Below, piece by piece: positions 2,801 to 32,111 of a DNA stretch of 64,000 bases. Source of the DNA: an uncultured Candidatus Sumerlaeota bacterium (GTDB lineage Bacteria; Sumerlaeota; Sumerlaeia; MVZB01; JAJFLK01); contig CAYXAU010000018.1 in the NCBI GenBank assembly GCA_964463045.1, forward strand, positions 4,443 to 68,442. The letters are read 5' to 3'. A program made the translations under genes and the position numbers. The notes under the pieces were generated by a model. That model saw nothing but the letters and a program-made list of their open reading frames with translations. It ran no database searches and was not told the DNA's origin. Position 1 is the stretch's first letter. Each line of letters starts with the position of its first letter.

Positions 2801-2942
2801 GAGTCAGACGCCCCTCAAGCGTCAGCCCCCGGCAGGCGTTGGCGGCTTGGACGGGCCCTCAGGCTTCCGTCACGTTCGCTCGTTGACGCGCAACGTGAGA
2901 CCGCCCGCGGGCGCGGATCGGCCGCGCGCCTCGGCCGGGGAT

Positions 2943-3221
2943 TCAGTCGCTTTTGTCTTCAGCGGCGGGCTCGCGGGCCTGAGCCGCCGAAGTGACTTTG
3001 GAAGGGGGGTCGATCGAGGGGTGGGCTTTTTCGGGTTTTTCGGGCCGTTCGGCTTCGTCCATCGCACCGCGGATTTCATCGTCGACGCCGCTCAGACCGG
3101 ACTTGAAGTCTCGGATCGCCTTGCCCATCGAGCTGGCCAGCTTCGGCAGGTTCTTCGGGCCGAAGATAATCAGCACGATGACCATGACGACGAGGAGTTC
3201 CTGGTAACCGACGCCAAACAT
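2943..3221 (-). CDS. tatA: Sec-independent translocase TatA/E
   Basis: MFGVGYQELLVVMVIVLIIFGPKNLPKLASSMGKAIRDFK is a canonical TatA N-terminus; GGAGG RBS; internal ATG at 3221 preferred over ORF start 3293. Confidence 0.8.
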   Translation of the reverse strand: MFGVGYQELLVVMVIVLIIFGPKNLPKLASSMGKAIRDFKSGLSGVDDEIRGAMDEAERPEKPEKAHPSIDPPSKVTSAAQAREPAAEDKSD

Positions 3222-3495
3222 GGTCTTTTTTGACCTCCCGGCTTCCCGCGCGGTCCAGCCCCGCCGCGCCGTAATCGACCCCGCGGCCACCACCCCCGAC
3301 CCCGATGAACGCCCCCTTGGGGCGGTTCAGCCTGGGGCCGGGTCAAGCCGGGCCTTAGTCCAGGCCAGCATAGCGAGGCCTTCAACCCGGCGTCAATCAA
3401 TCGTTTGAGCGGCGACAGGGCTACTCCCGCAAGGGCGGGATCGGGGGAGCGCGGCCTCGGATGGACTCGCGGCGGATTCCCGCCGGGGGCCCCAG

Positions 3496-4065
3496 ATGCA
3501 AGTTGACAAGGCGGCCGCGGCGGGCCTAGATAGGGCGACTGCGCTCGAAGGGGCGATGCTTTCCACGACGGGCATGCGAAGTTCGACCCCGGCCATCGCC
3601 GCCCAGGGGCCGCTGGGCTGGTTGGGCCTTTTCATCGGATGGATGATCCCGGGGGCCGGCTTCCTGATCTGGGGGCGATGGGTCCGCGGTCTGACCTGTT
3701 TCTTTTTGATTCACTTGACCTTCGGCCTGGGGCTCGTCCTGCACAGCGGCGTGGCCTGGCCCTCCTGGTCGTTCCGGTCCGAAGAATTCAACCTGATCAA
3801 CAACTTCACCTTCATCGTCCAGATGGGCACCGGGCTGCCGGCCCTGGCCAGCTTTCTGGCCTCGCAGTGGGTGCAGGAGCCGGGGGCAGGCCTGGCGTGG
3901 CTGGCCGGGGCCCCCAAGCACCCTCACTATGAGCTCGGCAGCTACTTCCTGATCGTGGCCGGGGCGCTCAATTACTTCGTCGTCGGCAACTTTTATGACC
4001 GGCTCGTCCGGCCTCGCCCCCCCTTCACGGCGCAGGAACGGCCGGAGGGAGCCCCCTCGGCGTGA
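3496..4065 (+). CDS. hypothetical polytopic membrane protein
   Basis: 4-5 hydrophobic helices, GC3-biased; no recognisable family. Confidence 0.45.
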   Translation: MQVDKAAAAGLDRATALEGAMLSTTGMRSSTPAIAAQGPLGWLGLFIGWMIPGAGFLIWGRWVRGLTCFFLIHLTFGLGLVLHSGVAWPSWSFRSEEFNLINNFTFIVQMGTGLPALASFLASQWVQEPGAGLAWLAGAPKHPHYELGSYFLIVAGALNYFVVGNFYDRLVRPRPPFTAQERPEGAPSA

Positions 4066-4247
4066 CCTCCCTCGGTCTTCTTCATATCGGGTCCCTGGTC
4101 TACCTTTCCGGGGTCATCTGCCTGGTGATCAGCCTGAACGAGAATCGGGACCCCCTGATCATCCTGCGGGAGACCCTCCGCCGGTGGGTCAAGTTCCTGG
4201 GCCTGAGCCTCCTGATCGCCGTGGCGGTCCACCTTCTGAGCCGCTGA
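4062..4247 (+). CDS. small (61 aa) two-helix membrane protein, GTGA-overlap coupled to upstream gene
   Basis: GTG start overlapping stop of previous ORF; two TM helices; weak evidence. Confidence 0.3.
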   Translation: MTSLGLLHIGSLVYLSGVICLVISLNENRDPLIILRETLRRWVKFLGLSLLIAVAVHLLSR

Positions 4248-4288
4248 GCGGGGGGGCGGGGGGTCAAAAAAAAAGAATCCGAAGGGGC

Positions 4289-4317
4289 TTGACAGGGGCG
4301 GGGGGGTCTGATCTAGT
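4289..4317 (+). promoter_or_regulatory. sigma-70-like promoter: TTGACA, 17 nt spacer, TCTAGT; preceded by A9 tract (UP-like) at ~4266-4274
   Basis: perfect -35 hexamer at 4289-4294, -10-like at 4312-4317, ~60 nt upstream of the 4377 start codon. Confidence 0.3.
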
Positions 4318-4376
4318 AGCCATCAAGCTTTTCATCCAAGCTCCCCTATCCTTACCCGGAAAGGAGGGATTGGTAC

Positions 4377-5057
4377 ATGCGCGGCAAGGGTTTCACGCTC
4401 ATTGAGCTGCTGATCGTGGTGGCGATCATCGCGATCCTGGCGGCCATTGCGGTGCCGAACTTCCTGGAGGCGCAGGTCCGTTCGAAGGTCTCGCGGGTGA
4501 AGAACGACCAGCGAGCCTACGCCACGGCGTTGGAGTCGTATTACATCGACAACAACAACTATCCGGCCGTGGACAATTCGACGGCGGCCAACGAAGCGGC
4601 CCCCTTTGGCCATGGCGTCAATGCGCTGCCGAACGCCTCGACGTTCCTGCGGAACATGCCGACGTTCCGTCGCAAGCGGAACCAGGCTGACCCGCTCAGC
4701 ACGTTGACGACGCCGGTGTCCTACCTGAGCTCGATGCTCTCGGACACCTTCGCCAAGACGGCGGGCGCGATCTTCTCTTACTCGACAGCCGACGTCACCT
4801 TGGGGCGGGCGGCCGTCAAGGCCGGATGGATCATCTGGTCCTTCGGCCCGGACCTGGACGAGACGACGGCGCAATCGACCGGCGCCCAGTACGGCGGCAA
4901 CATCGGCGTCAGCAACGCCGGCGCCGAAGGGACGCGGGTTGAGACCGCCTACTACAACCCGCTCGGCCAGGTGCCGTCCCCGACGCTGATCGCGATCACC
5001 TATGACGCCACCAACGGCACGACGTCCCGCGGCGATATCTACCGCGTTAAGCAGTAG
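4377..5057 (+). CDS. prepilin-type N-terminal cleavage/methylation domain protein (GspG-like pseudopilin / type IV pilin-like)
   Basis: MRGKGFTLIELLIVVAIIAILAAIAVPNFLEAQ classic prepilin leader + hydrophobic helix; strong AGGAGG RBS. Confidence 0.8.
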   Translation: MRGKGFTLIELLIVVAIIAILAAIAVPNFLEAQVRSKVSRVKNDQRAYATALESYYIDNNNYPAVDNSTAANEAAPFGHGVNALPNASTFLRNMPTFRRKRNQADPLSTLTTPVSYLSSMLSDTFAKTAGAIFSYSTADVTLGRAAVKAGWIIWSFGPDLDETTAQSTGAQYGGNIGVSNAGAEGTRVETAYYNPLGQVPSPTLIAITYDATNGTTSRGDIYRVKQ

Positions 5058-5108
5058 CCTTCGTCCGCCGGACGCCTGAGGCTGACCCCCAAGCCGATTG
5101 ACAAGACT

Positions 5109-5141
5109 GGGCCTGCCCTTCCGGGCAGGCCCTTTTTCTTT
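5109..5141 (+). terminator. rho-independent terminator (10 bp GC stem gggcctgccc/gggcaggccc, loop ttcc, then tttttcttt)
   Basis: perfect hairpin followed by T5 run 52 nt after the pilin-like stop codon. Confidence 0.7.
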
Positions 5142-5256
5142 CGTCCCGCCTCGCGTTGACGCCGCCGGCCAACCTCCCTTAAGATCGGACGGCAGAGGCC
5201 TTCGGGTCGCCAACCGTCGCGCCCCGGCCTGACCGGGGCGACGGGCTTTCCCCCGC

Positions 5257-6705
5257 ATGAGCGTTCCCCGTTTCCGACGCGCCTTGCTCGTCAACCCCCC
5301 GACGGGGCTTTTCCGGCGGGACGATCGCTGCCAATGCAAGGTCGAGGACCAGACGGTTCAGATCACGTTTCCGCCGATCGAGCTGGCTTTACTGGCCGCC
5401 GTCCTGCGCCGGGCCGGGGCCGAGCCCTTCGTCCGGGACTATCCGGCCCGCGGGGAGGGGTGGGCCCGATACGTCGCCGATCTGAAGGCCCTTGAGCCCG
5501 ATTTCGTGCTGGTCAACGTGGTGACGGCGACAGCGGCCGGCGATTTCCAGGCCTGCGCCGCCGCCAAAGAGACGCTCGGCCCCAAGGCGATGACCGCCGC
5601 CAAGGGCGAATACATGGAGGCTCTGGGGGTGGAGGCGCTCCGAGATCACCCTGAGGTCGACGTGGGCTTTCACGGGGAAGTCGAACGCGTGATCGAGAAG
5701 TTCCATCGGGGGGAGGCCCTGGCGACGTTGCCGGGGGTGATCTATCGGGATGGAGCCGCCGCCGACGGGCCGGGGCGGATCCATCGCAACCCCGGCCATC
5801 CGGTCGTCGACAATCTGGACGAACTCCCCTACCCGGCGCGCGATCTGCTGGAGAACGAACTTTACCGCAGCCCGGAGAGCGGGCGGCCGTTGACGGTGAT
5901 CCACGGCAATCGGGGCTGCCCGGCCCATTGCATCTTCTGCCCGGCGGGGGTGATTTCGGGCTTCAGCGTGCGTTATCGCTCGCCGGCGAACGTTCTCGGC
6001 GAGATCGAGGAGTGCGTCGAGCGGTTCGGCATCGACGAATTCCTCTTCCACGGGGACACGTTCACGCTCAACAAATCCTGGACGATCGAGCTGTGCGAAC
6101 GGATCGTCGAGCGGGGCCTCAAGATTCGGTGGGGTTGCAACAGCCGGGTGGACACGTTGGACGACGAACGAGCCGCGGCCATGAAGCGCGCCGGTTGTTG
6201 GGTGGTCGCCTTCGGCGTCGAAACCGGCAATCAGGACCTCCTCGACCGAATGAAGAAGGCCGCCACGCTCGCCGACGCCGAGCGCGCCGTCGCCGTCTGC
6301 AAGCGCCACGGTCTCCGCACGCACGCCTTCTTCGTCATCGGGCTGCCGTGGGAGACCGAGGCCACGCTGGCGCAAACCCTCGATTTCGCCCGGAAGCTCG
6401 ACACCGACTTCTTCGACTTCAACATCGCCTACCCGCTGCCCGGCACGGAATTTTACGAGATGGCCGTGGCGGAGAACCTCTTCGAGGCCCCGCCCGAAAC
6501 CGGCGGTTACGCCCGCGCCGCCGTCGGCTCCTACGAACTCTCCGCCGAACGCCTCACCGAGTGGCGCCGCCAGGCGCTCCTGGCCATGTACCTCCGGCCC
6601 GGCTATATCGCCCGCACGCTCCTCAAAAGCCGTTCCCCCCGCGTGACCGCCAACTACGTGCGGGCAGGGGCGCGCCGGCTAAGGCAGCTCCTGACCGCCT
6701 CCTGA
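5257..6705 (+). CDS. B12-binding domain-containing radical SAM protein (class B)
   Basis: N-terminal cobalamin-binding-like region; CPAHCIFCP (CxxxCxxC) radical SAM cluster motif; ~480 aa typical of class B rSAM. Confidence 0.8.
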   Translation: MSVPRFRRALLVNPPTGLFRRDDRCQCKVEDQTVQITFPPIELALLAAVLRRAGAEPFVRDYPARGEGWARYVADLKALEPDFVLVNVVTATAAGDFQACAAAKETLGPKAMTAAKGEYMEALGVEALRDHPEVDVGFHGEVERVIEKFHRGEALATLPGVIYRDGAAADGPGRIHRNPGHPVVDNLDELPYPARDLLENELYRSPESGRPLTVIHGNRGCPAHCIFCPAGVISGFSVRYRSPANVLGEIEECVERFGIDEFLFHGDTFTLNKSWTIELCERIVERGLKIRWGCNSRVDTLDDERAAAMKRAGCWVVAFGVETGNQDLLDRMKKAATLADAERAVAVCKRHGLRTHAFFVIGLPWETEATLAQTLDFARKLDTDFFDFNIAYPLPGTEFYEMAVAENLFEAPPETGGYARAAVGSYELSAERLTEWRRQALLAMYLRPGYIARTLLKSRSPRVTANYVRAGARRLRQLLTAS

Positions 6706-6736: not shown

Positions 6737-8383
6737 TCAATGGCGATACAGCCTCCACCGGGGGGTTGTTTCGTTCGGTGGCGGGAGGGTGAAGGGGAGG
6801 ATCATATCGTCGGCCAGTTCGCCGCCGACGCCGTTGCCGTTGGCGTCCAGATAGTTCTCGGCCGGATCACGGAGGCCGAAAAAGCCGCGCAACGTGAGCG
6901 TGTAGCCGCCCCCGGGAGCGTTGGCCAGACGAAGCCGGAGGATGCTCCCCTCGGTCACGATGGCCTCGGGTCGGAACCGGATCGGGGCCTGGTCCAGATT
7001 GGGGTCGCTCCAGCGCAGGTCGATGGCCGAGGGGAAGTGGGGCAGGGCGATCGGTTCGCTCAACTCGACGGCGATATCCGCTCCGCGGCCGGGCCGGGTG
7101 ATCTCCAGGCCGACGACTTGAGGGGGCGTCACGTCCGGCATCGAGGGTGGGCCCCCTTCGCTGTCCACCGTCCAGGCCCAACCGAGCGTCAGCATCTCCT
7201 GATCCGTGAAGAGTCCCCCCCGGACGTCGTGATTGAAGGGGTTGTCCCATGTTCCGACAACCCGGATGTTGGTTCCGGCGGGAAGCGCGACGGGACGATG
7301 GTAAACGTAGAACTCCTGCCAGTCGAAATCCCATCGATCGATCCGGATGAGCGGGATTTGACGACTGTCGGGCAGAATGGCCGTCGCCGAATACGTGCTC
7401 CCGATCGTGTGCATGTGCGGGAAAACGGCGATGACGTGTCGGCTCGTCGGTACGGAGACATTCATTGTCAACTGATAGCCCTGGGCGCCGGCCGGCACGG
7501 TGAAGTCGATCCGCGTGGGGATCGCCTGGTAAAGCCGCCGGACGCCGGGGTCCTGGCTCACGTTGAGCCCCAAGCGCGTTCGATCCGTCTCGGGGACCCC
7601 CGACGGGTGATAATGCATCTGGACGATGATGTTGCTCCCCGCCGGGAGCTCGAAGCCCAGTTCCGACGTGTAGGGCTGGAAACCGCCGCCCGGCGCCCAG
7701 CCGCCCATGACGACGCTCCCGGACAAGCCCGGCCCGCCGAAGCAATCCCAGCCGTCGTTCGGGCCCCCCTGTTGAGCGTCCCGCGCCGGGCCGAGGTTAT
7801 TGGGATCGCTGTAGAGGACGGCGTGGTGCGCGATGCGGAGATTGTCCGGCTGGAATTGCAACCCCACGATCTTCGTCGGCTCGGTGAAGCCGGTCGGGAG
7901 GACAAAGCAGCGGTAAACGTCGCCTCCCGTCGCCCACATCTGCCACGTCTCGGCCATCTCCAGTACGAGGTCCGGCTCGCCGAACCGCCAGCCGTCGGGA
8001 TGTTCGATCGGCGGCGGAGCGTCTTCGGGGTCCCCGGCCGGCCCTCCGGCGTCCACCCAGCCCAAAAGGACGTCGATCTGTTCCTGCGTCAGGGAACGGT
8101 CGGGCTTGAAGCCCTGGCCGGGTTCGAAGCCCTGCTCCAGCGCCGCGTTCCAGGGGGGCATCAGGCGATTGGCAACATTGAAACGAATGAGGGCGAGCCG
8201 GCTTTCGGCCACCGTCTCCTCGTAGGTCTCCATGCTGAATGGGGCCAGCCCCCCCTCGATGTGACAGAGCGTGCATTTGGCTTGCAGCAGCCGGCCGATC
8301 TGGCCGTAATAGGTTGGATCGCCCGGATCGGCCGCGACCCAGCCCGCCAACCCCATCCACGCAAGGCATAATCCACGGCGCAT
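6737..8383 (-). CDS. secreted PSCyt1-type c-type cytochrome domain fused to PHM/DBH-like type-2 copper monooxygenase, with ~150 aa C-terminal beta-rich extension
   Basis: signal peptide MRRGLCLAWMGLAGWVAA; CTLCH haem motif + MPP motif (PSCyt1); HH (AHHAVLY), MHYH, HMH, WDFDWQ, TDQEM copper-site motifs; GGGAGG RBS before ATG at 8383. Confidence 0.6.
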   Translation of the reverse strand: MRRGLCLAWMGLAGWVAADPGDPTYYGQIGRLLQAKCTLCHIEGGLAPFSMETYEETVAESRLALIRFNVANRLMPPWNAALEQGFEPGQGFKPDRSLTQEQIDVLLGWVDAGGPAGDPEDAPPPIEHPDGWRFGEPDLVLEMAETWQMWATGGDVYRCFVLPTGFTEPTKIVGLQFQPDNLRIAHHAVLYSDPNNLGPARDAQQGGPNDGWDCFGGPGLSGSVVMGGWAPGGGFQPYTSELGFELPAGSNIIVQMHYHPSGVPETDRTRLGLNVSQDPGVRRLYQAIPTRIDFTVPAGAQGYQLTMNVSVPTSRHVIAVFPHMHTIGSTYSATAILPDSRQIPLIRIDRWDFDWQEFYVYHRPVALPAGTNIRVVGTWDNPFNHDVRGGLFTDQEMLTLGWAWTVDSEGGPPSMPDVTPPQVVGLEITRPGRGADIAVELSEPIALPHFPSAIDLRWSDPNLDQAPIRFRPEAIVTEGSILRLRLANAPGGGYTLTLRGFFGLRDPAENYLDANGNGVGGELADDMILPFTLPPPNETTPRWRLYRH

Positions 8384-8539
8384 GATCAGCCTCCCATGAT
8401 CCGGCCCAATCTTAGCCCCGGCGGGCCGAGATTGCCAACCCTTCCGGCCCATGGCCGCCCGACCTCGGGGGGCTGATGCCGAGCCGGCGCTCCGGAGCTA
8501 TGATTCGGGCGCGGACGCCCGCGCCGGAGCCCGCCGGCC

Positions 8540-19708: not shown

Positions 19709-20582
19709 CCTGCCTAATTATGACGCAGTGAGCGACTGGGTGGCCGACTACGTGCGGCGGCGCGTTCTGGATTTCGCTCCTTCGGCGAAGCGCCCTTTCG
19801 TGCTCGGCCTGCCGACCGGCGGATCGCCGCTGGGGACGTATCGCCGCCTGGCCGAGTTTTACCGGCGCGGCGAGCTTTCCTTCAAGCACGTCGTCACCTT
19901 CAACATGGACGAATACGTGGGTTTGCCGCCGGATCATCCGGAGAGCTACCACAGCTACATGGAAAAGCACTTCTTCAGCCGGGTGGATATCGACCGCCGG
20001 CGGACGCACGTCCTCGACGGAAACGCCGCCGACCTGAACGAAGAGTGTCGCCGCTATGAGGAGCGGATCGCCGCCGTCGGCGGGATCGAGCTTTTCCTGG
20101 GAGGGATCGGCCCCGACGGGCACATCGCCTTCAACGAGCCGGGCTCGTCGCTCGCCTCGCGGACGCGCGTCAAGACGCTGGCCTACGACACGATCGTCGC
20201 CAATTCACGGTTTTTCGGCGGCGACGTCGATCAGGTGCCGAAACTGGCCCTCACGATCGGCGTGGGAACGTTCATGGACGCGCGAGAGGTTCTCATTATT
20301 ATTTCCGGTCTCGCCAAGGCCCACGCCCTCTATAACGCCATCGAATGCGGCGTCAATCACATGTGGACGGTCTCGATGGTGCAGATGCACCCGCACGCCA
20401 CGATCGTCTGCGACGAGGACGCCACGGCCGAGCTGCGCGTCCGGACGGTCAACTACTTCAAGGGGATCGAGAAAATGCTCGCCCGGCAGCCGACCTACCC
20501 CATGGCCCCCAAGAGCTTTCCCCTGGGCCCGGCTGCTCGGGCTGGCCGGATCAATACTCGCCGACGATCGCGATCTGAATGA
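19695..20582 (+). CDS. nagB: glucosamine-6-phosphate deaminase
   Basis: [39 protein letters not shown] motifs of NagB. Confidence 0.85.
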
Positions 20583-20958
20583 CGTTGATCCCTTTGGCCC
20601 GGTGGATCGTTCCCTGGGCCGTGACCTTCTTGCCCACGTAAGGCAGGAGGAGTTCGTTGGCCGTCTGCAGGCCGGAGGCGGGGGCCGGGTTGCGATAGAC
20701 GGCGACGTAAACCTCGCCCGATTCGTCGTCCAGGAGCCCGATCGGAAAGCCATTCTCGGCCCGGAACTGGCCCTGAGCCCTTCCGGTTTCGCCGCGGGCC
20801 CCATCGATCGCGTAGCTGGAAATATCGATGACCTCCCCCACGATCGTCTGACGGGCGGGCCTCCCCCCCTGGCCCAGCGCCACGGCCAGCAGTCCCCCGA
20901 CGAATGTCGGGAGCGCAAGCATGCCGATGATCCCCATCCTTGACCTGCGATGTTTCAC
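20551..20958 (-). CDS. hypothetical secreted protein
   Basis: signal peptide [22 protein letters not shown]; GC3 biased; no family recognised. Confidence 0.4.
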
Positions 20959-21420
20959 GGGACTCGCTCCTTCCTCAGCTCTGGTTCTGCTCGGTCCTCC
21001 AAGGCGACCGGTCGCCGCGCGCCGCGACTTGTTGCAACTAGGACCTCCCCCCCAAGGCCACCAGGATCAATGAAGCAGATGATGTGCCGCTCACGGGTTC
21101 GGGGGGAAAGGGCTCACGGTCGTCTTGACAAGAGGCGCGAGCCCGAGGTCTCGCCCTGGATACCTCTGTCGTCGTAGATGGCTGAAAAAAGATAACTTAA
21201 TTGCTCCGGCCAGGCCGAATCCGTCGATCGGCGGGGGCCGGTCGGGCCAACCCATCGTCCAACGGATTGCCTTCCACGATTAGGGCTGGAGCAGCAGGCG
21301 CGCTGAAGGGCCTGAAACAACGCAACCTGGCGCGCGACATCCGAAGGTATTGTAAACAGCCCAAGGCGCAACTGGACAGGCAGGATAGGGACCAGAACTT
21401 GAACCTGCGGAGGGAGTGTT

Positions 21421-21434
21421 GAGACGCGGGTCTC
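21421..21434. promoter_or_regulatory. perfect 5-4-5 palindrome GAGAC-GCGG-GTCTC, candidate enhancer (UAS) ~135 bp upstream of the sigma-54 promoter
   Basis: seen directly; position is typical for bEBP binding sites. Confidence 0.25.
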
Positions 21435-21561
21435 TCGCCGTTCAGGGCGAGCTAAGTTATTTCGTCTCAGTCGATCCCATACCGGAGCAGGTGCGAATGG
21501 CGACCACTCGTCGGTTGGATCGGGACGGCGTGAACTAAGACTATAACGCGTTTAAGTTTTG

Positions 21562-21576
21562 TGGAACGAAACCTGC
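21562..21576 (+). promoter_or_regulatory. sigma-54 (-24/-12) promoter TGGAACG-aaac-CTGC
   Basis: matches TGGCACG-N4-TTGC at 9/11 defined positions with exact GG-N10-GC spacing; ~66 nt upstream of the ATG at 21642. Confidence 0.45.
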
Positions 21577-21641
21577 GGAATATGCGCAAAGGAAGGGCAG
21601 AAATGCCGCACATGCCCGCGGATCGCAACAGGAGATCAACC

Positions 21642-22907
21642 ATGACCCGAATCCCTTCCCTGATCGTCGGCTTGGCGACTTTCCTCGGCCTGACCGTCCC
21701 GGCGGCAGCTCAGGAAGGCGCTCCGACGTTCTACCGGGACATCGTCCCCCTTCTGCAGCGGAATTGTCAGAGTTGTCATCGTCCGCAGGGGGCCAACCTG
21801 GGCGGGATGGTCGCCCCGATGGCGCTGGTGACCTACGCCGAAGTCCGGCCATGGGTTCGGTCGATCCTCCGACAGGTGGAGGATAATCAGATGCCCCCCT
21901 GGCACGCCTCGCCGGCCTTCAAGGGCGTCTTCGAGAACGAGCGTTCGCTCAGTGAGGAGGAAGTGGCCGTGATCGCCCGCTGGGCGCGGGCTGGAGCCCC
22001 CGCCGGACGGGAGGCCGAGGCGCCGCCGCCCATAGCCTTTCCCGAGGCCGGATGGGCCATCGGCGAGCCGGACCTCGTCCTGTCGTTTGACGAGCCCTAC
22101 GTCGTCGCCGATGAGGTCGAGGACCAGTACGTCAACTTTACGGTCGACGTTCCCGAAGACCTGCACGCCGAGGACCGTTGGATGCAGGCGTTGGAATTCA
22201 AGCCGGGCAGCGCCGTGGTTCACCACATCATCGGCTACGCCTATGCGCCTGGGACCGGGGCGATCGGCGCCGACCGGGGGATGGTGGGCGGGATCGCGCC
22301 GGGCAATGACCCGGAGAGTTGGCCTGAAGGTTACGGGATGATGCTTCGCAAAGGCTCCAAATTCACCTTCGCCATGCATTACCACAAGGAGAAAGGCCCC
22401 GGGACGGCGACGGCGGACCGCTCCAGCGTCGGCATCAAGTTCCATCCCAAGGGCTCGAAGGTTCGGCCCATGACGATCGAAGCGATCGGGAACATGGGTT
22501 TTGAGATTCCCCCGTTCCACAAGGAATGGCACGTCGGGGCCGCCAAGACGTTCGACCGTCCGATCGAAGTCCATTACTGGATGCCGCACATGCACCTGCG
22601 CGGGAAGTCAGCCACGTATACGGCCTTCTATCCCGACGGAGGGCGCGAGGTCCTGCTCGATGTCCCCCGCTACGACTTCAACTGGCAGACCTCTTATCAG
22701 TACCGCGAACCGAAGCTCTTGCCGGCCGGCACGCGCGTCGAGGTCCTGATGACCTATGACAACTCGGTGGAGAACGCCGCCGTCCCGAACCCGACGATCC
22801 CCGTCCGCTTCGGCGGCCCCACGACCGATGAAATGGCGCTCGGCTGGCTGGCCTATGCCTACGCCGACGAAACGCCGCAGGACGAGGCCGAGGCGGCGGG
22901 CGGATGA
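21642..22907 (+). CDS. secreted PSCyt1-type c-type cytochrome domain fused to PHM/DBH-like type-2 copper monooxygenase
   Basis: signal peptide; CQSCH haem motif, NQMPPW and ARWARAGAP (PSCyt1); VVHHIIGY, AMHYH, PHMHLRG, RYDFNWQ, GGPTTDEMALGW (DBH-like TRDEMC Met ligand region); AGGAG RBS. Confidence 0.65.
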   Translation: MTRIPSLIVGLATFLGLTVPAAAQEGAPTFYRDIVPLLQRNCQSCHRPQGANLGGMVAPMALVTYAEVRPWVRSILRQVEDNQMPPWHASPAFKGVFENERSLSEEEVAVIARWARAGAPAGREAEAPPPIAFPEAGWAIGEPDLVLSFDEPYVVADEVEDQYVNFTVDVPEDLHAEDRWMQALEFKPGSAVVHHIIGYAYAPGTGAIGADRGMVGGIAPGNDPESWPEGYGMMLRKGSKFTFAMHYHKEKGPGTATADRSSVGIKFHPKGSKVRPMTIEAIGNMGFEIPPFHKEWHVGAAKTFDRPIEVHYWMPHMHLRGKSATYTAFYPDGGREVLLDVPRYDFNWQTSYQYREPKLLPAGTRVEVLMTYDNSVENAAVPNPTIPVRFGGPTTDEMALGWLAYAYADETPQDEAEAAGG

Positions 22908-23148: not shown

Positions 23149-25104
23149 TTAAGGCTGGCGGGAGGGAGGGCCGGCGTCGATGGTCTTCATCTTGCGCCAG
23201 AGCGTGGCCGGGTTGATGCCCAAGAGCCGAGCCGCGACCGAGCGCTTGCCGGCGGTGTATTCCAGGGTCCGGAGAATGTGAAGGCGTTCAAGCTCACGGA
23301 TGGTCAACGGTTCCCAACCGGTCGGTCGCAGGGCGTGAGCGGCCGCCGCCGACGGAGCGGAGGGGCCGCTTCGTGGACCGGAGGCTGCCGGGGGACTTTC
23401 GCGCTCGCGGGCGCGGCGGCGGTGAGCGATGCCCTGGAGGATCGAGACGACCTGGGTGCCGAGGACGGTCGCCCGTTCGATGACGTTTTCCAGTTCGCGG
23501 ATGTTGCCGGGCCACTCGTATTCCGTGAGGATCCGCATGTCGTCCTCGCCGACGATCGATTCACGCCGGACGGAGCCCTTGCCGTACTTCTCGACGAAGA
23601 AATCGACGAGCAGCGGGATGTCCTCGACGCGTTCGCGCAGGGGCGGGACGTGGATCGGCAGGACGTTCAATCGGAAAAACAGGTCCTGACGAAACAAACC
23701 TTCCTCGAGCAGCCTTTCCAGGTCGCGGTTGGTGGCGGCGATGAGGCGAACGTCGACCGAGAGTGTTTCGGTGCCGCCGACGCGCGAGAATTCGCGCTCC
23801 TGAATGAACCGCAGAAGCTTGACCTGCATGTTCAGGTCGAGCTCGCCGATCTCGTCCAGGAAGATCGTCCCCTTGTCAGCGGCCTCGAACCGGCCGATCT
23901 TGAGCGCCTCGGCCCCCGTGAACGCGCCCCGTTCGTGGCCGAACAGCTCGCTCTCGATGAGCGTCTCCGGAATGGCGGCGCAATTGACGGGCATGAAGAC
24001 CCGGTCCCGACGGGCTGAGTTATTGTGAATGGCCCGGGCGATGAGTTCCTTGCCCGTGCCGTTCTCGCCGGTGATCAGCACGTTGGCGTCGCTGGCGGCC
24101 GCCAGACGGGCCAGCCGAAGGACGCGCTGCATCGGAAGGGCCTTGCCAATGATCGGGCGGTCGCCGTGGACCTCCATCACGGCCCCGGCGTCCCGCTCGG
24201 CGGCTCCCCCCTTGGAAAGGGCCGAGAGAGCGGGGGGGTCCTCCGGCCCCTGCCGGCGCGCGGGCGAGAGGCCCTCCAGCGGGGCATAGCGGCCTTCCCG
24301 CTCGTAGATCAGATTCATATGGTAGATGGCCCCCGGGTGGCCGGGCCGATCGCGCAGGACGCGGTGGAACTGTTCGATGGCCTGGCTCACGTGACCCAAC
24401 TCGAGGCGGGCGATGCCGAGATTGCAGCGAACTTCGATCGTGGGCTCCAGCCGGGCGGGGTCATCCCCATGACGCTTCAAGTAGATTTCCAGGTGCTCGA
24501 CGGCCCGGGCGAAGTCACGCGCCTGAAAGTAGAGGTTAGCCAGGTGGCGGCGGGCGCCGTCGTGAGCCGGGTTGAGCCCCAGGGCGCGATGGAAGTAATG
24601 CTCGGCGGCTTCGGTCTCGCCATGGTTCCAGCAGGCGATGGCCAGGTAATAGGAACAGTCCGCCTGAAACTCGGCCCCATCGCCGAAGAACAGACCGAGA
24701 TAGAAACGATCGGGCGCGATGGCGACGGACGCCTCGGCCAGCCCGCCGAAGAGTTCGCGAGCCTGCTCGATGCGCCCTTGGTTGATCAGAATCTGGCCGA
24801 GATTGTATTGAGCCTCGACGTCGGTCCGGTCGTGGTCGAGGAGGGCGCGATAGTGCTTCTGGGCCTCGTCGGTCAGGCCGGCGTGATAGAGCCCGTGGGC
24901 GTAGCAACGGGCCACGTCGGGATCGTTCGGCGCGATCTGGCGGGCGCGCTTGAACTCCTTGAGGGCCGCGTCGTAGCGCATCTCGGAGAAGTGACGGATG
25001 CCTTCATGGAGCGCCAGAGCCGCCCCCACGACGGCCGCGCCGCAATGGGAGCACTGCCCGGCGCCGAGGGCCAGGCTCCGCCGACACTGGACACAACTCA
25101 ACAT
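23149..25104 (-). CDS. sigma-54-dependent transcriptional activator (bEBP) with N-terminal zinc-ribbon + TPR sensor region and C-terminal Fis-type HTH
   Basis: GENGTGKE Walker [16 protein letters not shown] (GAFTGA) motif, C-terminal [23 protein letters not shown]; N-terminus CxxC...CxxC then ~6 TPRs instead of a receiver domain. Confidence 0.8.
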
Positions 25105-25940: not shown

Positions 25941-26597
25941 ATGGGTCGCTACAATTTCCCTCCCGAAGAACTTCAGCGCCGCGCGGCGCTCTCCTCCGAG
26001 CTTAAGAAGAAGTTCAAGGCCAAGCGGGCCGCCGCGGCCGCCGCCGCCGGGAAAAAAGGACCCGCCAAGGACGAGAAGAAGAAGGCCGCCGAGGAAACGC
26101 CGAAAATTGACTACGCGGCTCTCAAGGCCAAAGCCCGCGACCGGCGGAATTTTCTGGCCGGAACGCTCAATTTCACCCTCGGGATGACGATCACCACCCT
26201 CGGCGTCCAGCGATTCATGTTTCCGCGGATGCTTTTCGAGCCCCAGAGCGCATTCGTTGCCGGGCGGCCCGACGAGTTCCTGCCGAACAACCCCATCTTC
26301 TTCAAGGACTTTCGCACGTGGATCATCCGCCTGGGGAACCGGATCATCGCCCTTTCGGGCCGCTGCACGCACCTGGGCTGCACGCCGGCCTGGCTGACCT
26401 CCGACGGCAAATTCAAGTGCCCATGCCACGGCAGCGGCTTCCGCATCACGGGGGTGAACTTCGAGGGCCCGGCCCCCCGCGCGCTGGAACGGTTCAAGAT
26501 TGAATTGGCCGACGGGAGGCTCCGCGTGGAGACGGCCAAGCTCTTTCTGTTCGAAAACGGCGGCTGGGAGAATCCGGAGTCCTATGTGACCGTCTGA
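25941..26597 (+). CDS. Rieske [2Fe-2S] subunit of a cytochrome bc-type complex, Tat signal preceded by Lys/Ala-rich N-terminal extension
   Basis: CTHLGC and CPCHGS Rieske boxes; RDRRNFLAG Tat motif; ~55 aa KA-rich N-terminal tail. Confidence 0.85.
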   Translation: MGRYNFPPEELQRRAALSSELKKKFKAKRAAAAAAAGKKGPAKDEKKKAAEETPKIDYAALKAKARDRRNFLAGTLNFTLGMTITTLGVQRFMFPRMLFEPQSAFVAGRPDEFLPNNPIFFKDFRTWIIRLGNRIIALSGRCTHLGCTPAWLTSDGKFKCPCHGSGFRITGVNFEGPAPRALERFKIELADGRLRVETAKLFLFENGGWENPESYVTV

Positions 26598-26651
26598 GAT
26601 CGCGGCGGCGGCGCTCGGCGCGCCGGCCCGCGATAATCGGCGAGGGCGTCG

Positions 26652-27434
26652 ATGCAAGCCTTCCTCAATAAAGTCTACGAAACTCAGCTCTGGAAATCCC
26701 TCTTTCGGCACGGCTTGCCGCGGGACCCGCGCAACCGTTCGCTGGCGATCCTGACCAACGTTTTCCTGCACCTTCACCCGGTGCGCGTCCGAAGCGGCGC
26801 TCTCCGCGTCCGCTTCACCTGGTGCATGGGCGGCCTCACGTTTTTCATCTTCCTCGTGCTCACGTTCACCGGCGTCCTGCTGATGTTTTATTATCATCCC
26901 AACGCGCGAGACGCCTATCCGGATATCCAGAAACTCGAATCGGGGGACGTCCCCTTCGGCATGCTGATGCGGAACATGCATCGCTGGGGGGCGCATCTGA
27001 TGGTGATCTCCATCTGGTTGCACATGTTCCGCGTCTTTCTGACGGGCAGTTACAAGCCGCCGAGGGAATTCAATTGGGTCGTGGGGGTCATCTTGCTGGT
27101 CTTGACGCTGTTGCTCAGCTTCACGGGTTATCTTTTGCCGTGGGATCAGTTGGCGATGTGGGCCGTTACCGTCGGGACGAACATGGCGCGGGCGACGCCC
27201 TTGGTCGGCCACGAGGGTCCGGGAGCCCAATTCCTGAAGATCGGCGATTTTCAGCTCGTGACGTCTCGCAGCGACGTGCGTTTCGCCCTCCTCGGCGGGC
27301 GAATCGTCGGCCCGGGCGCGCTGTTGAGGTTTTACGTCCTGCATTGCATCCTGTTCCCCCTGATCGCCGGCGTCTTCATGGCGATTCATTTCTGGAGAAT
27401 CCGGAAGGACGGCAATATCTCGGGCCCCGTCTAG
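26652..27434 (+). CDS. cytochrome b (N-terminal half, b6-like) of bc complex
   Basis: 4 TM helices with conserved haem-ligand histidines ([20 protein letters not shown]), typical split cytochrome b. Confidence 0.85.
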
Positions 27435-27480
27435 ACGGGCCCGCCCGCGGACCCAGCCCCCTCAACGGAGCCCAGCCTCG

Positions 27481-28611
27481 ATGATGGACCGCCTCCTGGA
27501 CCCCCATTGGTGGAACGAGTTCCTGTTCCCCATTCTCTTCCGTCCAATCAACTCCGTCTTCGCGCCCGATCCCCGCTATGTGTTAACGTTCCTCTTTGTC
27601 GGCTTCGTTCTGGCCTGCGTTTTCCTCAAGCAATTGACCCACCCGGTGGTGGTCGGCGCCCCGGCCGCGCTGTTCGCCGTCTTGTTCGTGATCGGCCTGG
27701 TCAACCCGGACTTTCAGTTGCTCATCTTCAAGGGGGACAACGTCCCGATCGTGATTCTCCTTGTCGTCGTCCCGTTTTATACGTGGTGGGGGCTCCGTCA
27801 GGCCGTGCTGAACGACGAGTATAAGCACAAGGCCGGCCGCGACCTGCTCCGCATGTCCAATACGCCCGACAACGATCCAGAGGACAAGGTTCACACTTTT
27901 CCTTTTCTTGTCCATCCGGAATTCATTTCGACCGTCGTCTGCTCCGTTCTGCTGATGGTCTGGTCGATCACGATCGACGCTCCCCTGGAGCAGCCCTCCG
28001 AGTCGGCCCGCACACCCAATCCCTCCAAGGCTCCCTGGTACTTTCTCGGTTTGCAGGAGATGCTCGTTTATTTTGATCCCTGGCTCGCGGGCGTCGTGAT
28101 GCCGAGCTACATCATCGTGGGGTTGATGGCCATCCCTTATTTCGACGCCAATCCGAAAGGGAACGGATACTTCACCTGGGAGGAACGAAAGTACGCCATC
28201 TCGTTCTTTCTTTTCGGCTTTGTTATCCTCTGGGTCATCCTGATCGTCAACGGGACGCTCCTGCGCGGTCCCGGTTGGAACTTCTTCGGTCCGTTCGAGT
28301 ACTGGGATCACAACAAGGTGGAAGCCCTGACCAACGTCAATTTCAGCGAGATGCTCGGCTTCGATCCGGCGACCCCCTGGTGGCTCCGTGAGGCCCCGGG
28401 ATTTCTGGCGTTGCTGATCTATTTTATCGGTCTTCCGATTGTGGGGTGGTTCGTCTTTCGGAAAATCGCCGCGCAGTACGGCGTGCTCCGGTACGGCGTG
28501 GCCTCCCACTTTATCCTGGCCATGATGCTCCTGCCGATCAAAATGTATCTCCGGTGGTTGTTCAACCTGAAGTATATCATCGCGATTCATGAGATCGGGG
28601 TGAACATCTGA
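27481..28611 (+). CDS. cytochrome b C-terminal half (subunit IV-like), extended
   Basis: PNPSKAPWYFLGLQE (PEWY-like) motif, multiple TM helices. Confidence 0.75.
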   Translation: MMDRLLDPHWWNEFLFPILFRPINSVFAPDPRYVLTFLFVGFVLACVFLKQLTHPVVVGAPAALFAVLFVIGLVNPDFQLLIFKGDNVPIVILLVVVPFYTWWGLRQAVLNDEYKHKAGRDLLRMSNTPDNDPEDKVHTFPFLVHPEFISTVVCSVLLMVWSITIDAPLEQPSESARTPNPSKAPWYFLGLQEMLVYFDPWLAGVVMPSYIIVGLMAIPYFDANPKGNGYFTWEERKYAISFFLFGFVILWVILIVNGTLLRGPGWNFFGPFEYWDHNKVEALTNVNFSEMLGFDPATPWWLREAPGFLALLIYFIGLPIVGWFVFRKIAAQYGVLRYGVASHFILAMMLLPIKMYLRWLFNLKYIIAIHEIGVNI

Positions 28612-28664
28612 ATCTCGGGCGGCGGCGCCGCCGGTAGCCACCGCCGAGGAACTGAGCCCGAACG

Positions 28665-31600
28665 ATGCGACGCAATGGTATCAGCCGACAGGGCATGTTC
28701 AACGTCTGGGCGATGCTGCTCACGCTGACGGGCCTGTGGGCCGTGCTCAAGGATTACAATCCGCATTGGTTCCAGCGGGGCAATTGGAAGAAGTTTCAGG
28801 TGGCCTTCCGCGAGTTAACCCTTGGGCGCGCGCAGGAGGCCATCGAGAAGGAGAACGCGAAGATCGAGGCGGTCTACCAGGAGCGCCTGGCGGAGCTGGA
28901 CCGGAAGATCCGGGAGGTCACCGACGCCGCGCGCAGCGTCAATCAGGAGGAGCTGATCCAGGCCAAGCGCCGCGAGATCGACGAGCTGACGCGCCTGGAA
29001 TACGAGAAGAATCAGGCCCTCTCCTTCGCCAAGAGCCTCATGGGCTCGGCCCGGTCGAAGTACGAATTTCTGAAGAACGATCCCTACAGTAAATCCGTGG
29101 AAACGGAGCGGGCTCGCCAGGAGTACGAGCGCTATTTCGAGGATGTTCAACGGCTGACGCCGGCCGCCGAGGCGGCTTACGCTGATCTCAATCGGGCGAA
29201 GGAGGAACTGAGCCTCCTGCAAGCGGGTCCGGCGCCGCTGATTCGCGAGAAGAGCGCCATCTTCGCCGAGCGGGACCGATGGCGCAACGAGGTCGAGGCG
29301 ATCCGGCCGAGCGACGCGGTGAGCTTCCTGGCCAGCGTCGCCCGTGACGTGCCCCTGGCCGACTGGATCGATCCCAAGTACAACCTTCGACAAACGGTGC
29401 TTGACGGCCTTCCCGACCTCACCGGCGCCCCGAAGGTGGACCGTTGCACGACCTGTCACGTCGGGATCGACGACCCCGGCTACGACGACCCGAGCCTACC
29501 AATGGTCTTCCGCGCCCATCCGAAGCTTGAGCTTTACGTTGGGCCGAAGTCCCCGCATCCACTGGAGCAGTTGGGCTGCACCTCCTGTCACCTGGGCCGC
29601 GGCTACGGGACGACGTTCAAACTGGCCGCCCACACGCCGGACACGGAGGAACAGGCCACGGAATGGCGCCGTCGCTATGGATGGAAAGACCTCCATTATT
29701 GGGACTACCCGATGCTTCCGAAACGCAACATGGAGGCCATGTGTTTCACCTGTCATAAAACCAATCTGGGATATGAGCTCAGCATGGCCCGCTCGGTGTT
29801 CGAGGGGCGGCGCATCTACGAATATCGGGGTTGTCACGGTTGTCATAAAATCGACGGCGTGAGCGACGACATGGCGAAGATCGGCCCGACGTTGGAACAC
29901 GTCGCCGTCAAACTGAATCCCGACTGGACGCCCCGTTGGATTTCCGGCCCCCGGAAATTCTACCCCACAGCCCGCATGCCCCACGCGTTCGGCCATCGCA
30001 TCCCGATTCGTGATACCTTCCCGGAATTCTTTGAAACGATGGAGCATGAAACGGAACCGGCCCTCTGGCAGGAGATCGAGCGCCAATTGGAGGAAGATCA
30101 CGCCCATATGGTCCGTGAAGAGGCGGCGATGATCGAGGGAATCACCGCGCTTCTCTACGCACGGTCTCGGGACCTCCCGCTGGAAGAGCCCCCAGCCGAG
30201 GCGGGCGATCCCGCCCTCGGGCGTCAGATCGTCAAAGTTCACAATTGTCTGGGGTGTCACGAGCTCCACGACGGCGAGATCCAATCCCCCGGCCAGGGGT
30301 ACGCGCCTGACTTGTCGAAAGTCGGCTCAAAAACCAATCGCCCATGGCTTTTCAACTGGCTGCGCGAGCCCAAGCGTTACTGGCCGGAGGCGCGCATGCC
30401 CGATCCCCGTCTGACTCCGGAAGAGACCAATCACGTCGTCGCCTATCTGCTGACGCTCCGCGATGACGCCTACATCGAGGCGCCACGCGACCAGAGCTCG
30501 GACGACGAAATGCTGGAACTGGCGGTGCGCTATCTACGCTCGCGCCTCAGCGAAGCCGAGGCCCGCCAAACGGCGACGGCGATGTCGCCCGAGGAACGCC
30601 GCCTGCTCGTGGGCGAGGAAACGATCTACCGCAACGGCTGCTTCGGATGCCATGACATTCCAGGCTTTGAGGACCGCGGCCGCATCGGGACGGAGCTGAC
30701 CGGCGAGGGATTTAAGGAAATCGAGCGCTTCGACTTCGGGATGCATCGTTTCGTGCACATTCCCCACTTCCGGCACGAATGGGTCCGATTAAAGGTCAAG
30801 CAACCGCAGATCTATTTCCTCGGCAAGGTGATCAGCCCTTATGAACAGACTTTGAGCATGCCCTGGTTCGGCTTCAGCGACGAGGACGCCGATAAGATTA
30901 CGACCTTCGTGCTCGGTCAGACGGGCAAGCAACCTCCCGAAAAGTATGTATACACGCCGGGAGGGGATCAGCAGGCCATTCTTGAAGGGCGGAAGCTGAT
31001 CGAGCGCAGAAATTGCATCGGGTGCCACAAAATCGGCATGGGCTGGCAGTGGGTGGACACCGATGAGCACGGCTTTGACGAGGATCTCGTCTGGGTGACG
31101 GAGCCGCTGGTGGCCCTGGGGGACGCGAATTTGCCCGAGGGTCGCTATTCGCGGATCGCCCAGGTCGGCGAAGCCAAAGCCCAGGACAAGGTCCTCATCC
31201 CCGCCGAAGGGTTCGTCGATACACGCCAACTGGCGCGATTCGGCGAGGATTACCTCTCGATCGGAGAGCTTCTCGGCGAGGCTCCGATCGAAGTCAACGT
31301 CGGTTCGCGAGAGGAAATCCGCGTGGCGATGGAGCGGCCGGCGACGCTCAAGGTCGAGGGCGTCCAGGAAGGTTATATCAAACGCTTTTACGAAGATTCG
31401 GCGTTGGCCCCGCCGATCCTCCGGCGGGAAGGCGCCAAGGTCCGGCCGCAGTGGTTCTTCAATTTCCTCAAGCACGTGACGGACATCCGCAACCACATCC
31501 AGGTGCGGATGCCCCAGTGGGAATGGAACGACGCCGAGGCCAACGCCGTGGTGCGTTTCTTCGCCGCCGCGGCGGGCGAGCCGTTCCCGTTCGAATCGGA

Positions 31601-32111
31601 GCCCATCTCACCGTTGAGCGAAGAGGTTCACGGAACGACGGCCCGGGAGCTGTTCGGCCTGCCGGGGACGCCCGAATACGAACAGAGCCTCAAATGTTTC
31701 AGTTGCCACCCAGCGGGCGAGCTGGTTCCGACCAATCCGCGCGAGAACTGGGGCCCGAACCTTTACCTGGCTCAGGAACGGCTGAAGTTCTCATTCATTC
31801 GATCCTGGTTGCGCAACCCCCAGGCGTGGTCGCCCGGCACGCGGATGCCGAACATATTCTACGACTATAGCGATCCGGACGGCGTCGTCGAACTGCGGCC
31901 CGATGGCGAGCGCCAGATCGTCGCCTTGGCCGAGATGTTGCATTACCTGCCCAACCTCGAGGAGGTTCGCCTGGCAGCCCAGGCGGAGGCCGAACGGCGC
32001 AAAACGGCCGTCGAGACCGGGCCGGGGGAAGTGTTTGAAGAAGATGACGGGGCCGAAGTCTTCGAGGAGGACGAAGAACCCGAGGTTTTCGAAGAAGACG
32101 GCGGAGTCTAA
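28665..32111 (+). CDS. large multihaem (8 CxxCH) c-type cytochrome subunit of the bc complex
   Basis: N-terminal TM anchor; CTTCH, CTSCH, CFTCH, CHGCH, CLGCH, CFGCH, CIGCH, CFSCH motifs; acidic C-terminal tail. Confidence 0.8.
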   Translation: MRRNGISRQGMFNVWAMLLTLTGLWAVLKDYNPHWFQRGNWKKFQVAFRELTLGRAQEAIEKENAKIEAVYQERLAELDRKIREVTDAARSVNQEELIQAKRREIDELTRLEYEKNQALSFAKSLMGSARSKYEFLKNDPYSKSVETERARQEYERYFEDVQRLTPAAEAAYADLNRAKEELSLLQAGPAPLIREKSAIFAERDRWRNEVEAIRPSDAVSFLASVARDVPLADWIDPKYNLRQTVLDGLPDLTGAPKVDRCTTCHVGIDDPGYDDPSLPMVFRAHPKLELYVGPKSPHPLEQLGCTSCHLGRGYGTTFKLAAHTPDTEEQATEWRRRYGWKDLHYWDYPMLPKRNMEAMCFTCHKTNLGYELSMARSVFEGRRIYEYRGCHGCHKIDGVSDDMAKIGPTLEHVAVKLNPDWTPRWISGPRKFYPTARMPHAFGHRIPIRDTFPEFFETMEHETEPALWQEIERQLEEDHAHMVREEAAMIEGITALLYARSRDLPLEEPPAEAGDPALGRQIVKVHNCLGCHELHDGEIQSPGQGYAPDLSKVGSKTNRPWLFNWLREPKRYWPEARMPDPRLTPEETNHVVAYLLTLRDDAYIEAPRDQSSDDEMLELAVRYLRSRLSEAEARQTATAMSPEERRLLVGEETIYRNGCFGCHDIPGFEDRGRIGTELTGEGFKEIERFDFGMHRFVHIPHFRHEWVRLKVKQPQIYFLGKVISPYEQTLSMPWFGFSDEDADKITTFVLGQTGKQPPEKYVYTPGGDQQAILEGRKLIERRNCIGCHKIGMGWQWVDTDEHGFDEDLVWVTEPLVALGDANLPEGRYSRIAQVGEAKAQDKVLIPAEGFVDTRQLARFGEDYLSIGELLGEAPIEVNVGSREEIRVAMERPATLKVEGVQEGYIKRFYEDSALAPPILRREGAKVRPQWFFNFLKHVTDIRNHIQVRMPQWEWNDAEANAVVRFFAAAAGEPFPFESEPISPLSEEVHGTTARELFGLPGTPEYEQSLKCFSCHPAGELVPTNPRENWGPNLYLAQERLKFSFIRSWLRNPQAWSPGTRMPNIFYDYSDPDGVVELRPDGERQIVALAEMLHYLPNLEEVRLAAQAEAERRKTAVETGPGEVFEEDDGAEVFEEDEEPEVFEEDGGV

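Follow-up and report, generated by a model that had tools for sequence, protein, structure and literature searches.

A stretch of 64,000 nucleotides from an uncultured Candidatus Sumerlaeota bacterium (contig CAYXAU010000018.1, positions 4,443 to 68,442; hereafter the window) carries, at 21642..22907 on the forward strand, a gene whose product joins a c-type cytochrome domain to a core related to the copper enzymes peptidylglycine alpha-hydroxylating monooxygenase (PHM) and dopamine beta-hydroxylase (DBH). A fusion of this kind had been proposed in a preliminary description of the gene. The gene, stop codon included, encodes a protein of 421 amino acids. Divergent from it, at 20551..20937 on the reverse strand and across a 704-nt spacer, lies the partner gene, which encodes a secreted protein of 128 amino acids without a known family. 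An open reading frame (ORF) at the fusion gene, 21561..22907 (+), is initiated by GTG and would give 448 amino acids. The ATG at 21642, which the preliminary description had taken as the start, was preferred because a Shine-Dalgarno-like AGGAG (21630..21634, +) stands 7 nt 5' of it, because gene calls on public contigs with an identical protein use it, and because the homolog alignment begins there. The N-terminus, MTRIPSLIVGLATFLGLTVPAAAQ/EG, has the pattern of a Sec signal peptide (residues 1-24, ending ...VPAAAQ/EG; 21642..21713, +). A hydrophobic N-terminus is present in all homologs of a 36-sequence alignment, and residues 1-22 score below 50 in predicted local distance difference test (pLDDT) in the AlphaFold model.

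Behind the signal peptide, a mono-haem c-type cytochrome domain occupies residues ~27-118 (21720..21995; all features of the fusion gene are on the forward strand). It contains the haem attachment motif CXXCH at C42, C45 and H46 (21765..21779) and an MPP motif at M84-P86 (21891..21899). A Pro/Ala-rich interdomain linker, residues ~119-137 (21996..22052) as delimited by the alignment and the AlphaFold model, leads into two beta-sandwich domains. The first, the CuH domain (residues ~138-285; 22053..22496), has model strands at residues 145-283 and aligns to PHM domain I. The second, the CuM domain (residues ~286-410; 22497..22871), has model strands at residues 293-407 and was delimited by these, by fold matches and by a sub-threshold match to the Pfam family Cu2_monoox_C over residues 306-406. 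The motifs quoted in the preliminary description were all located where it had placed them: CQSCH at 42-46, MPP at 84-86, VVHHIIGY at 192-199, MHYH at 245-248, PHMHLRG at 315-321, DFNWQ at 345-349 and TTDEMALGW at 394-402. This set of motifs is well beyond chance.

The AlphaFold model, computed from the alignment of 36 homologs (pLDDT 84.8; predicted template modelling score, pTM, 0.82), folds the core as two tandem beta-sandwich (jelly-roll) domains, as in PHM/DBH-type copper monooxygenases. In a Foldseek search of the Protein Data Bank (PDB), the model matched DBH at E=4e-11 and about 30 PHM entries at 5e-11 to 3e-8, over 280-320 columns, and unrelated jelly rolls in the same search scored 3e-5 or weaker. 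For comparison of the ligands, the rat PHM chain sequence was confirmed against PDB entry 4e4z and then aligned with the family profile by hhalign (227 columns, E=0.0018). This alignment pairs H194 and H195 (22221..22226) with the PHM CuH ligands H107 and H108, H246 (22377..22379) with the CuH ligand H172, H316 and H318 of the H-M-H segment (22587..22595) with the CuM ligands H242 and H244, and M398 of GGPTTDEM (22833..22835) with the CuM ligand M314. The spacing from H246 to H316 is 70 residues, identical to that from H172 to H242 in PHM. The roles of these ligands in PHM, and the gap of 11 Å that separates its two copper sites, have been described (PMC9064607). The preliminary description had named two outcomes that would speak against its proposal, namely ligands out of register with these six PHM residues and a C-terminal region falling into a non-copper family. 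All six residues were paired, and the profile searches favoured the copper family. Cu2_monoox_C (PF03712) was matched by 13 of the 36 close homologs (best E=1.7e-6) and by 15 of 42 redoxin-fused relatives, and some relatives score above the cut-off (P0220, 27.7 bits; P0168, 25.0 bits). Cu2_monooxygen, the model of the N-terminal domain, was matched by three of the 42 redoxin-fused relatives (E down to 2.7e-7). Predicted fold, ligands and the profile matches of relatives place the catalytic core within the PHM/DBH superfamily as a distant member.

The putative cofactor residues are strongly conserved. In the 36 close homologs, which are 49-61% identical, every quoted motif is invariant, as are the nine cofactor residues. 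A more diverse sample comprised 150 representatives of clusters at 50% identity, 133 of which cover all nine cofactor sites, and the full C-C-H / H-H-H / H-H-M set is retained in 132 of these 133. Counted singly among the representatives, H194 and H195 are each kept in 148/150, H246 in 148/149, H316 and H318 each in 142/144, and M398 in 141/141. The second-shell motifs follow the same pattern, with NWQ in 143-144 of 144 and E397 of DEM in 141/141, and the same cofactor residues are present in the redoxin-fused subfamily and in a second, 31%-identical copy within the window. Conservation also refined the proposed CuH site: within MHYH, H246 stands as a ligand, and H248, replaced by T in 67 of the 150 representatives and kept as H in 60, is variable and therefore not a ligand. 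Periplasmic copper binders rich in His and Met are common, and the protein might be imagined as a non-catalytic one that binds, traffics or senses copper. This is highly improbable given two distinct sites in the catalytic arrangement of PHM together with the conserved NWQ and DEM segments, a fused haem that would have no role in simple binding, and neighbourhoods that, where examined, contained no cop, cus or sco genes.

In the haem domain, CXXCH is invariant in the 36 close homologs and in all 141 of the representatives covering it, and holds the only two cysteines (C42 and C45) of the 421-residue protein. M84 is kept in 147/147 representatives and M60 alternates between M and F, which makes M84 the likely sixth (axial) ligand of the haem. 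With a probable distal Met and the all-alpha cytochrome c fold, the domain is probably a mono-haem, class-I-like c-type cytochrome; C42 and C45 would hold the haem covalently, and its axial ligands would be H46 and probably M84. Against Pfam, the isolated domain scored below the cut-offs of two cytochrome c families (Cytochrome_CBB3, 24.5 bits with a cut-off of 27; Cytochrom_C, 18.6 bits with a cut-off of 21.3), with Haem_bd and PccH as further sub-threshold matches, and the cytochrome domains of relatives reached 34-37 bits. The preliminary description had assigned this domain to PSCyt1 and called it planctomycete-type, an assignment that could not be upheld. The full-length protein gave no match to PSCyt1 (PF07635), and the isolated domain reached 12.7 bits (cut-off 22; E=0.2) over profile positions 37-57 of 59, that is, 21 of the 59 positions, confined to the MPP segment. 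Because the score lies under the cut-off and the MPP segment alone is covered, the label is unsupported; moreover, no Planctomycetota occur among the best 79 species-representative loci. PSCyt1 and the fusion protein do share a hydrophobic helix before CXXCH (F..D..P.L...C..CH) and a later MPP, and the N-terminal pattern gives a weak match (E=0.04) to hydrazine synthase alpha (5c2v_A), in its haem domain. PSCyt1 usually occurs with partners of the PSD1/DUF1549/DUF1553 type. Unlike PSCyt1 proteins, the fusion protein contains no such domains in the Pfam scan, and the carriers of its family are mostly outside Planctomycetota.

With the export signal, CXXCH, the PHM/DBH fold, the conserved and equivalent ligands and the partner gene established, the protein is best explained as a Sec-exported, periplasmic or secreted copper monooxygenase of the PHM/DBH type, fed by its own haem and holding three metal centres, and we consider this explanation probable. 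Metal occupancy, the direction of electron flow, oxygen chemistry and the nature of the substrate are what we infer in the following scheme. Haem c (His46/Met84) would accept single electrons from periplasmic carriers, either soluble cytochromes c or a bc-type complex, and in relatives pyrroloquinoline quinone (PQQ) dehydrogenases could be the donors to the haem domain. The haem would pass electrons to the adjacent CuH (H194, H195 and H246), taking over the part that ascorbate plays in the animal enzymes, and CuH would reduce CuM (H316, H318 and M398) across the interdomain cleft. Cu(I) at CuM would then activate O2 and hydroxylate a C-H bond of the bound substrate. In the subclade of the window protein, the 128-residue secreted protein would probably be involved as substrate, carrier or subunit, and a glycine-extended peptide would not be the substrate. 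The relay from haem to CuH put forward in the preliminary description would suit the domain order, in which a short linker, modelled with confidence (pLDDT 73-93), connects the haem domain to the neighbouring CuH domain. This linker confidence, in a model of overall pTM 0.82, suggests a defined arrangement of the domains.

Several observations weigh against this explanation. Neither the single sequence nor a profile of the 36 homologs found PHM or DBH among PDB sequences, where the weak match to hydrazine synthase was the only one, and the hhalign probability was 15%, so the ligand register rests on hhalign combined with the fold match. The fusion protein itself scores 14.2 bits against Cu2_monoox_C, under the cut-off of 23, and the AlphaFold model contains no cofactors. 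The residues with which PHM grips the carboxylate and backbone of the C-terminal glycine are replaced in the hhalign alignment: R240 by M314, N316 by L400 and Y318 by W402. The closest orthologs share no conserved operon, and the fusions to AhpC/TSA-redoxin domains found in relatives could indicate peroxide or thiol chemistry rather than hydroxylation. Cu2_monooxygen (PF01082) likewise gave no match to the fusion protein in Pfam. The relationship to PHM is visible through structure, hhalign and the Pfam matches of relatives only, and the sub-threshold score of the protein beside the above-threshold scores of relatives indicates that the bacterial family is a distant branch mostly missed by current Pfam models.

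The altered residues bear on the possibility that the protein is a genuine bacterial PHM, active in peptide amidation. Across the representatives, the position of R240 is occupied by M, F, T or L, that of N316 by I, V or L, and that of Y318 by F, Y or W, so that the glycine-holding residues of PHM are unconserved in the family, and with R240, N316 and Y318 replaced a glycine-extended peptide appears an unlikely substrate. The intradomain disulfides of PHM are absent as well, CXXCH holding the sole cysteines. A search with a verified query for the PHM partner lyase (PAL) found a PAL/NHL-like ORF near 2/85 related loci and none in the window, and an amidation system with a PAL partner was accordingly rejected for want of a PAL-like lyase nearby. 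Since the peptide-binding residues and disulfides are missing and no such lyase is close, the protein is not taken for an amidating enzyme, a role that is scarcely credible here.

Compared with PHM, the catalytic core of PAM (PDB 1sdw, 1phm), the fusion protein is 15-18% identical. It differs in being bacterial and Sec-exported, in its N-terminal c-type cytochrome, in the lack of disulfides and of a PAL partner, and in its reductant, presumably haem instead of ascorbate. In the group of DBH, tyramine beta-monooxygenase and MOXD1 (PDB 4zel), the extra domain of DBH is a DOMON domain without an established cofactor role, whereas that of the fusion protein is a CXXCH cytochrome c, and the dimerisation domain is absent. 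A tethered cytochrome is known as a design from the caa3 oxidases and the cytochrome-c-fused N2O reductases. It is also found in three-domain copper nitrite reductases such as that of Ralstonia pickettii, RpNiR (PMC7201279, PMC13324648, PMC6278305), which similarly fuse a mono-haem cytochrome c to a periplasmic copper enzyme, with the donor beside the copper through which electrons enter. This likeness is an analogy only: RpNiR is a cupredoxin trimer with type 1 and type 2 Cu that carries its cytochrome at the C-terminus and reduces nitrite, and in fold searches the fusion protein had the PHM/DBH fold instead of a cupredoxin-fold type 1/type 2 copper core. A functional parallel is the c-type cytochrome domain CjX183, which reduces bacterial copper lytic polysaccharide monooxygenases (PMC8981238). 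There, too, a c-type haem feeds an extracytoplasmic mononuclear copper oxygenase and replaces small-molecule reductants; those proteins are separate, however, with an unrelated histidine-brace fold and a polysaccharide substrate. What appears to be new in the present case is a known copper core combined with a built-in electron supply, an altered substrate site and new partners.

The preliminary description had stated that no characterised example was known, and a literature search agreed with it: neither a paper on a PHM/DBH-type enzyme from bacteria or on a cytochrome c-PHM fusion nor a characterised member of this very large bacterial family was found in full-text literature that leaves most subscription journals uncovered, a coverage under which this absence is no proof. 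PHM, DBH and related proteins are the textbook ascorbate-dependent enzymes of animals, responsible for noradrenaline and for amidated peptide hormones. The way in which electrons reach their two copper sites and pass between them remains a matter of debate (PMC9064607). If the proposed scheme is true, a tethered haem would allow electron entry to be triggered and followed optically within one self-contained protein, and would mean that the oxygen-activating copper core works without ascorbate. With about 4,000 clusters at 50% identity, spread over many phyla and with several copies per genome, the family would be a large and so far untapped source of enzymes that oxidise C-H bonds, and one that would bring with it new partners: the 128-residue protein, DUF2911 and fused redoxin domains.

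The size of this family was estimated in two ways. A word-indexed search returned at least 5,604 proteins at E<=0.001 among 8,000 candidates scored, and an exhaustive profile search returned 19,258, 12,426 and 3,979 clusters (50% identity) at E<=1e-3, 1e-10 and 1e-30, respectively. The best 120 homologs are 363-489 amino acids long and cover 84-100% of the query. Carriers among species-representative genomes include Sumerlaeota, Acidobacteriota (Thermoanaerobaculia, Holophagales, Vicinamibacteria and 'Multivorans'), Nitrospirales, Hydrogenedentota, Rhodothermaeota, Longimicrobiales and Gammaproteobacteria, and the habitats represented are those of marine, sediment and sponge-associated bacteria from many phyla. 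Several copies per genome are common, frequently in tandem, and most members bear the names 'hypothetical' or 'cytochrome c family protein'. Of the top 150 representatives, about a third carry an N-terminal extension of ~200 residues, and in 39 of 42 extended representatives tested it contains an AhpC/TSA-Redoxin domain ahead of the cytochrome. Other domains added in relatives are EF-hands, alpha/beta-hydrolases and a BlaR1-type M56 domain with CBM48; in a single case, P0142, a DUF2911 domain is fused to the C-terminus.

These redoxin fusions lend some substance to a different function, in which the protein would be a periplasmic oxidase or peroxidase-like sink that handles peroxide or oxygen: O2 or H2O2 would be reduced at the coppers with electrons drawn from the cytochrome c pool, in concert with the redoxin domain in the longer relatives. 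One close homolog is named 'alkyl hydroperoxide reductase' by NCBI, three related loci adjoin COX1/COX2, and PHM itself reacts with H2O2 through a peroxide shunt (PMC9064607). The name, however, is borne by a two-domain homolog and is attributable to the redoxin fusions among its relatives, and the window protein has no redoxin domain. A His3 site and a His2Met site facing each other across a cleft mean O2 activation and C-H abstraction in every characterised enzyme, and the high paralogy of the family, with tandems of up to three copies, fits substrate diversification better. Such a sink would also hardly account for conserved non-redox partners such as the small protein and DUF2911, and we regard it as unlikely. 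For the monooxygenase, the dithiol redoxin domain of the fused relatives could, as a speculation, serve as one more donor upstream or remove peroxide. In the redoxin subfamily (e.g. P0169), a near-invariant C74 in a C-P motif is followed ~125 residues later by an equally near-invariant C201 in a G-C motif, in place of the classical CxxC, and these two cysteines could form an atypical resolving pair.

The gene neighbourhoods were compared by clustering the ORFs of 82 loci (designated L), with raw counts that include related genomes. One of three recurrent neighbours was the partner gene. Its 128-residue product is 44% identical (E=3e-33) to the protein of an ORF directly upstream of the family member in L004, and homologs also lie directly upstream of a family member in L010-L013. 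In the reciprocal test, a family member was found immediately downstream in 6/6 loci fetched through homologs of the small protein; these family members match the query at E<=1e-200, are 51-53% identical to it and have the full ligand set, and 4 of the 6 loci continue with DUF2911. Overall, the small protein and the fusion are paired in 12/12 loci. The small-protein family comprises 237 proteins, all 117-150 amino acids long and almost all unnamed or 'hypothetical'. The window member has no relative in Pfam or the PDB. Within the family, none of the Cys, His or Met residues is conserved, and the C-terminal Glu-Tyr is invariant. The closest orthologs of the window protein (L008, L092 and L093) are without the small protein, so the pairing marks the window gene and a sister clade in a rough neighbour-joining tree and not the whole family. 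An ambitious extension of the proposed scheme would have the enzyme oxidise its 128-residue partner, for example at the C-terminal Glu-Tyr, to give a modified protein or protein-derived cofactor, which would found a cytochrome-c-driven, PHM-type protein-modifying system. More broadly, the thousands of bacterial cytochrome c-PHM-like proteins, with or without a redoxin domain, could form a hitherto overlooked class of copper monooxygenases powered by the respiratory chain and possibly ancestral to animal PHM and DBH. We put forward this extension as a long shot.

A second recurrent neighbour, absent from the window, is a protein of DUF2911, the domain that is fused in P0142. Its gene stands immediately downstream of the family member in 31 of 79 species-representative loci, which belong to several phyla. 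A PQQ-dependent dehydrogenase (PF01011, E=3e-185) occurs within 4.5 kb in 12 of the 79 loci. In L039 and L041 the order on one strand is family copy, family copy, DUF2911, PQQ dehydrogenase, and in L015, L038 and L042 genes for PQQ-dependent dehydrogenases likewise adjoin family copies and DUF2911. This arrangement hints that quinoprotein dehydrogenases may feed electrons to the haem domain in relatives, but the link is suggestive only, since PQQ enzymes may be plentiful in these genomes. In L088, L089 and L091, the small protein, the fusion and DUF2911 form a module that has convergent COX2/COX1 genes at its flank and, ahead of it, a protein of ~1,110-1,125 residues without a Pfam family, inside which the family profile matches at E ~1e-47 to 1e-50.

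In the window, the fusion gene has as neighbours NagB, an oppositely oriented sigma-54 activator and, starting at 25941, a Rieske / cytochrome b / multihaem cluster, none of which is kept beside homologs. The last of these, a bc-type cluster (25941..32111, +) located 3 kb downstream, encodes a Rieske protein (25941-26597), cytochrome b (~26652-27434), a 376-residue protein without a family and a multihaem c-type cytochrome of ~1,140 residues. It is conceivable that this cluster is the electron source for the fusion protein; with the PQQ dehydrogenases of relatives, it forms a context fitting a periplasmic redox role. The same respiratory genes (Rieske and cytochrome b in the window, COX1/COX2 in L088, L089 and L091) could be read the other way, with a substrate oxidised at the copper and electrons leaving through the haem to the respiratory chain, which would make the protein a copper dehydrogenase or oxidoreductase. 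Fused c-type cytochromes are often the exit module of periplasmic dehydrogenases. We know of no enzyme with the PHM/DBH fold in which electrons leave from copper, however, and a CuM that contains Met stabilises Cu(I) for O2 binding. CuH of PHM is purely an electron-transfer site that feeds CuM (PMC9064607). Flow in this reverse direction is quite improbable.

The sigma-54 activator (23149..25104, -) is convergent to the fusion gene and has an N-terminal Cys-rich/TPR region, and in L004 and L087 a sigma-54 response regulator is found two or three genes upstream of the family copy. A -24/-12-like element, TGGAACgaaacCTGC, lies at 21562-21576 (+), 66 nt upstream of the ATG at 21642. It was rejected as a sigma-54 promoter: matches with two or fewer mismatches numbered 33 against ~49 expected, which is no enrichment, and such an element occurs upstream of homologs in 4/57 loci against 18/57 on the control strand and is not conserved. 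The spacer between the partner and fusion genes (20938..21641) is unusually long, with no Rfam match and no convincing sigma-70 promoter or terminator. An 85-residue ORF within it (21114..21371, -) looks spurious.

Duplication within the family is illustrated by L092, where 1874..6233 (+) is a direct tandem of three paralogs of 430, 427 and 410 amino acids that includes the closest homolog of the window protein (63% identity); this triple tandem fits rapid duplication and diversification. The window itself contains a second family copy, a 571-residue ORF at 6737..8452 (-), which is 31% identical to the fusion protein over 416 residues. Its motifs are CTLCH, MPPW, AHH, MHYH, PHMH and DQEM, it matches Cu2_monoox_C at E=5e-4, and it has a C-terminal extension of ~150 residues without a family match. 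The true start of this copy is probably an internal Met before the signal-like MRRGLCLAWMGLAGWVAA.

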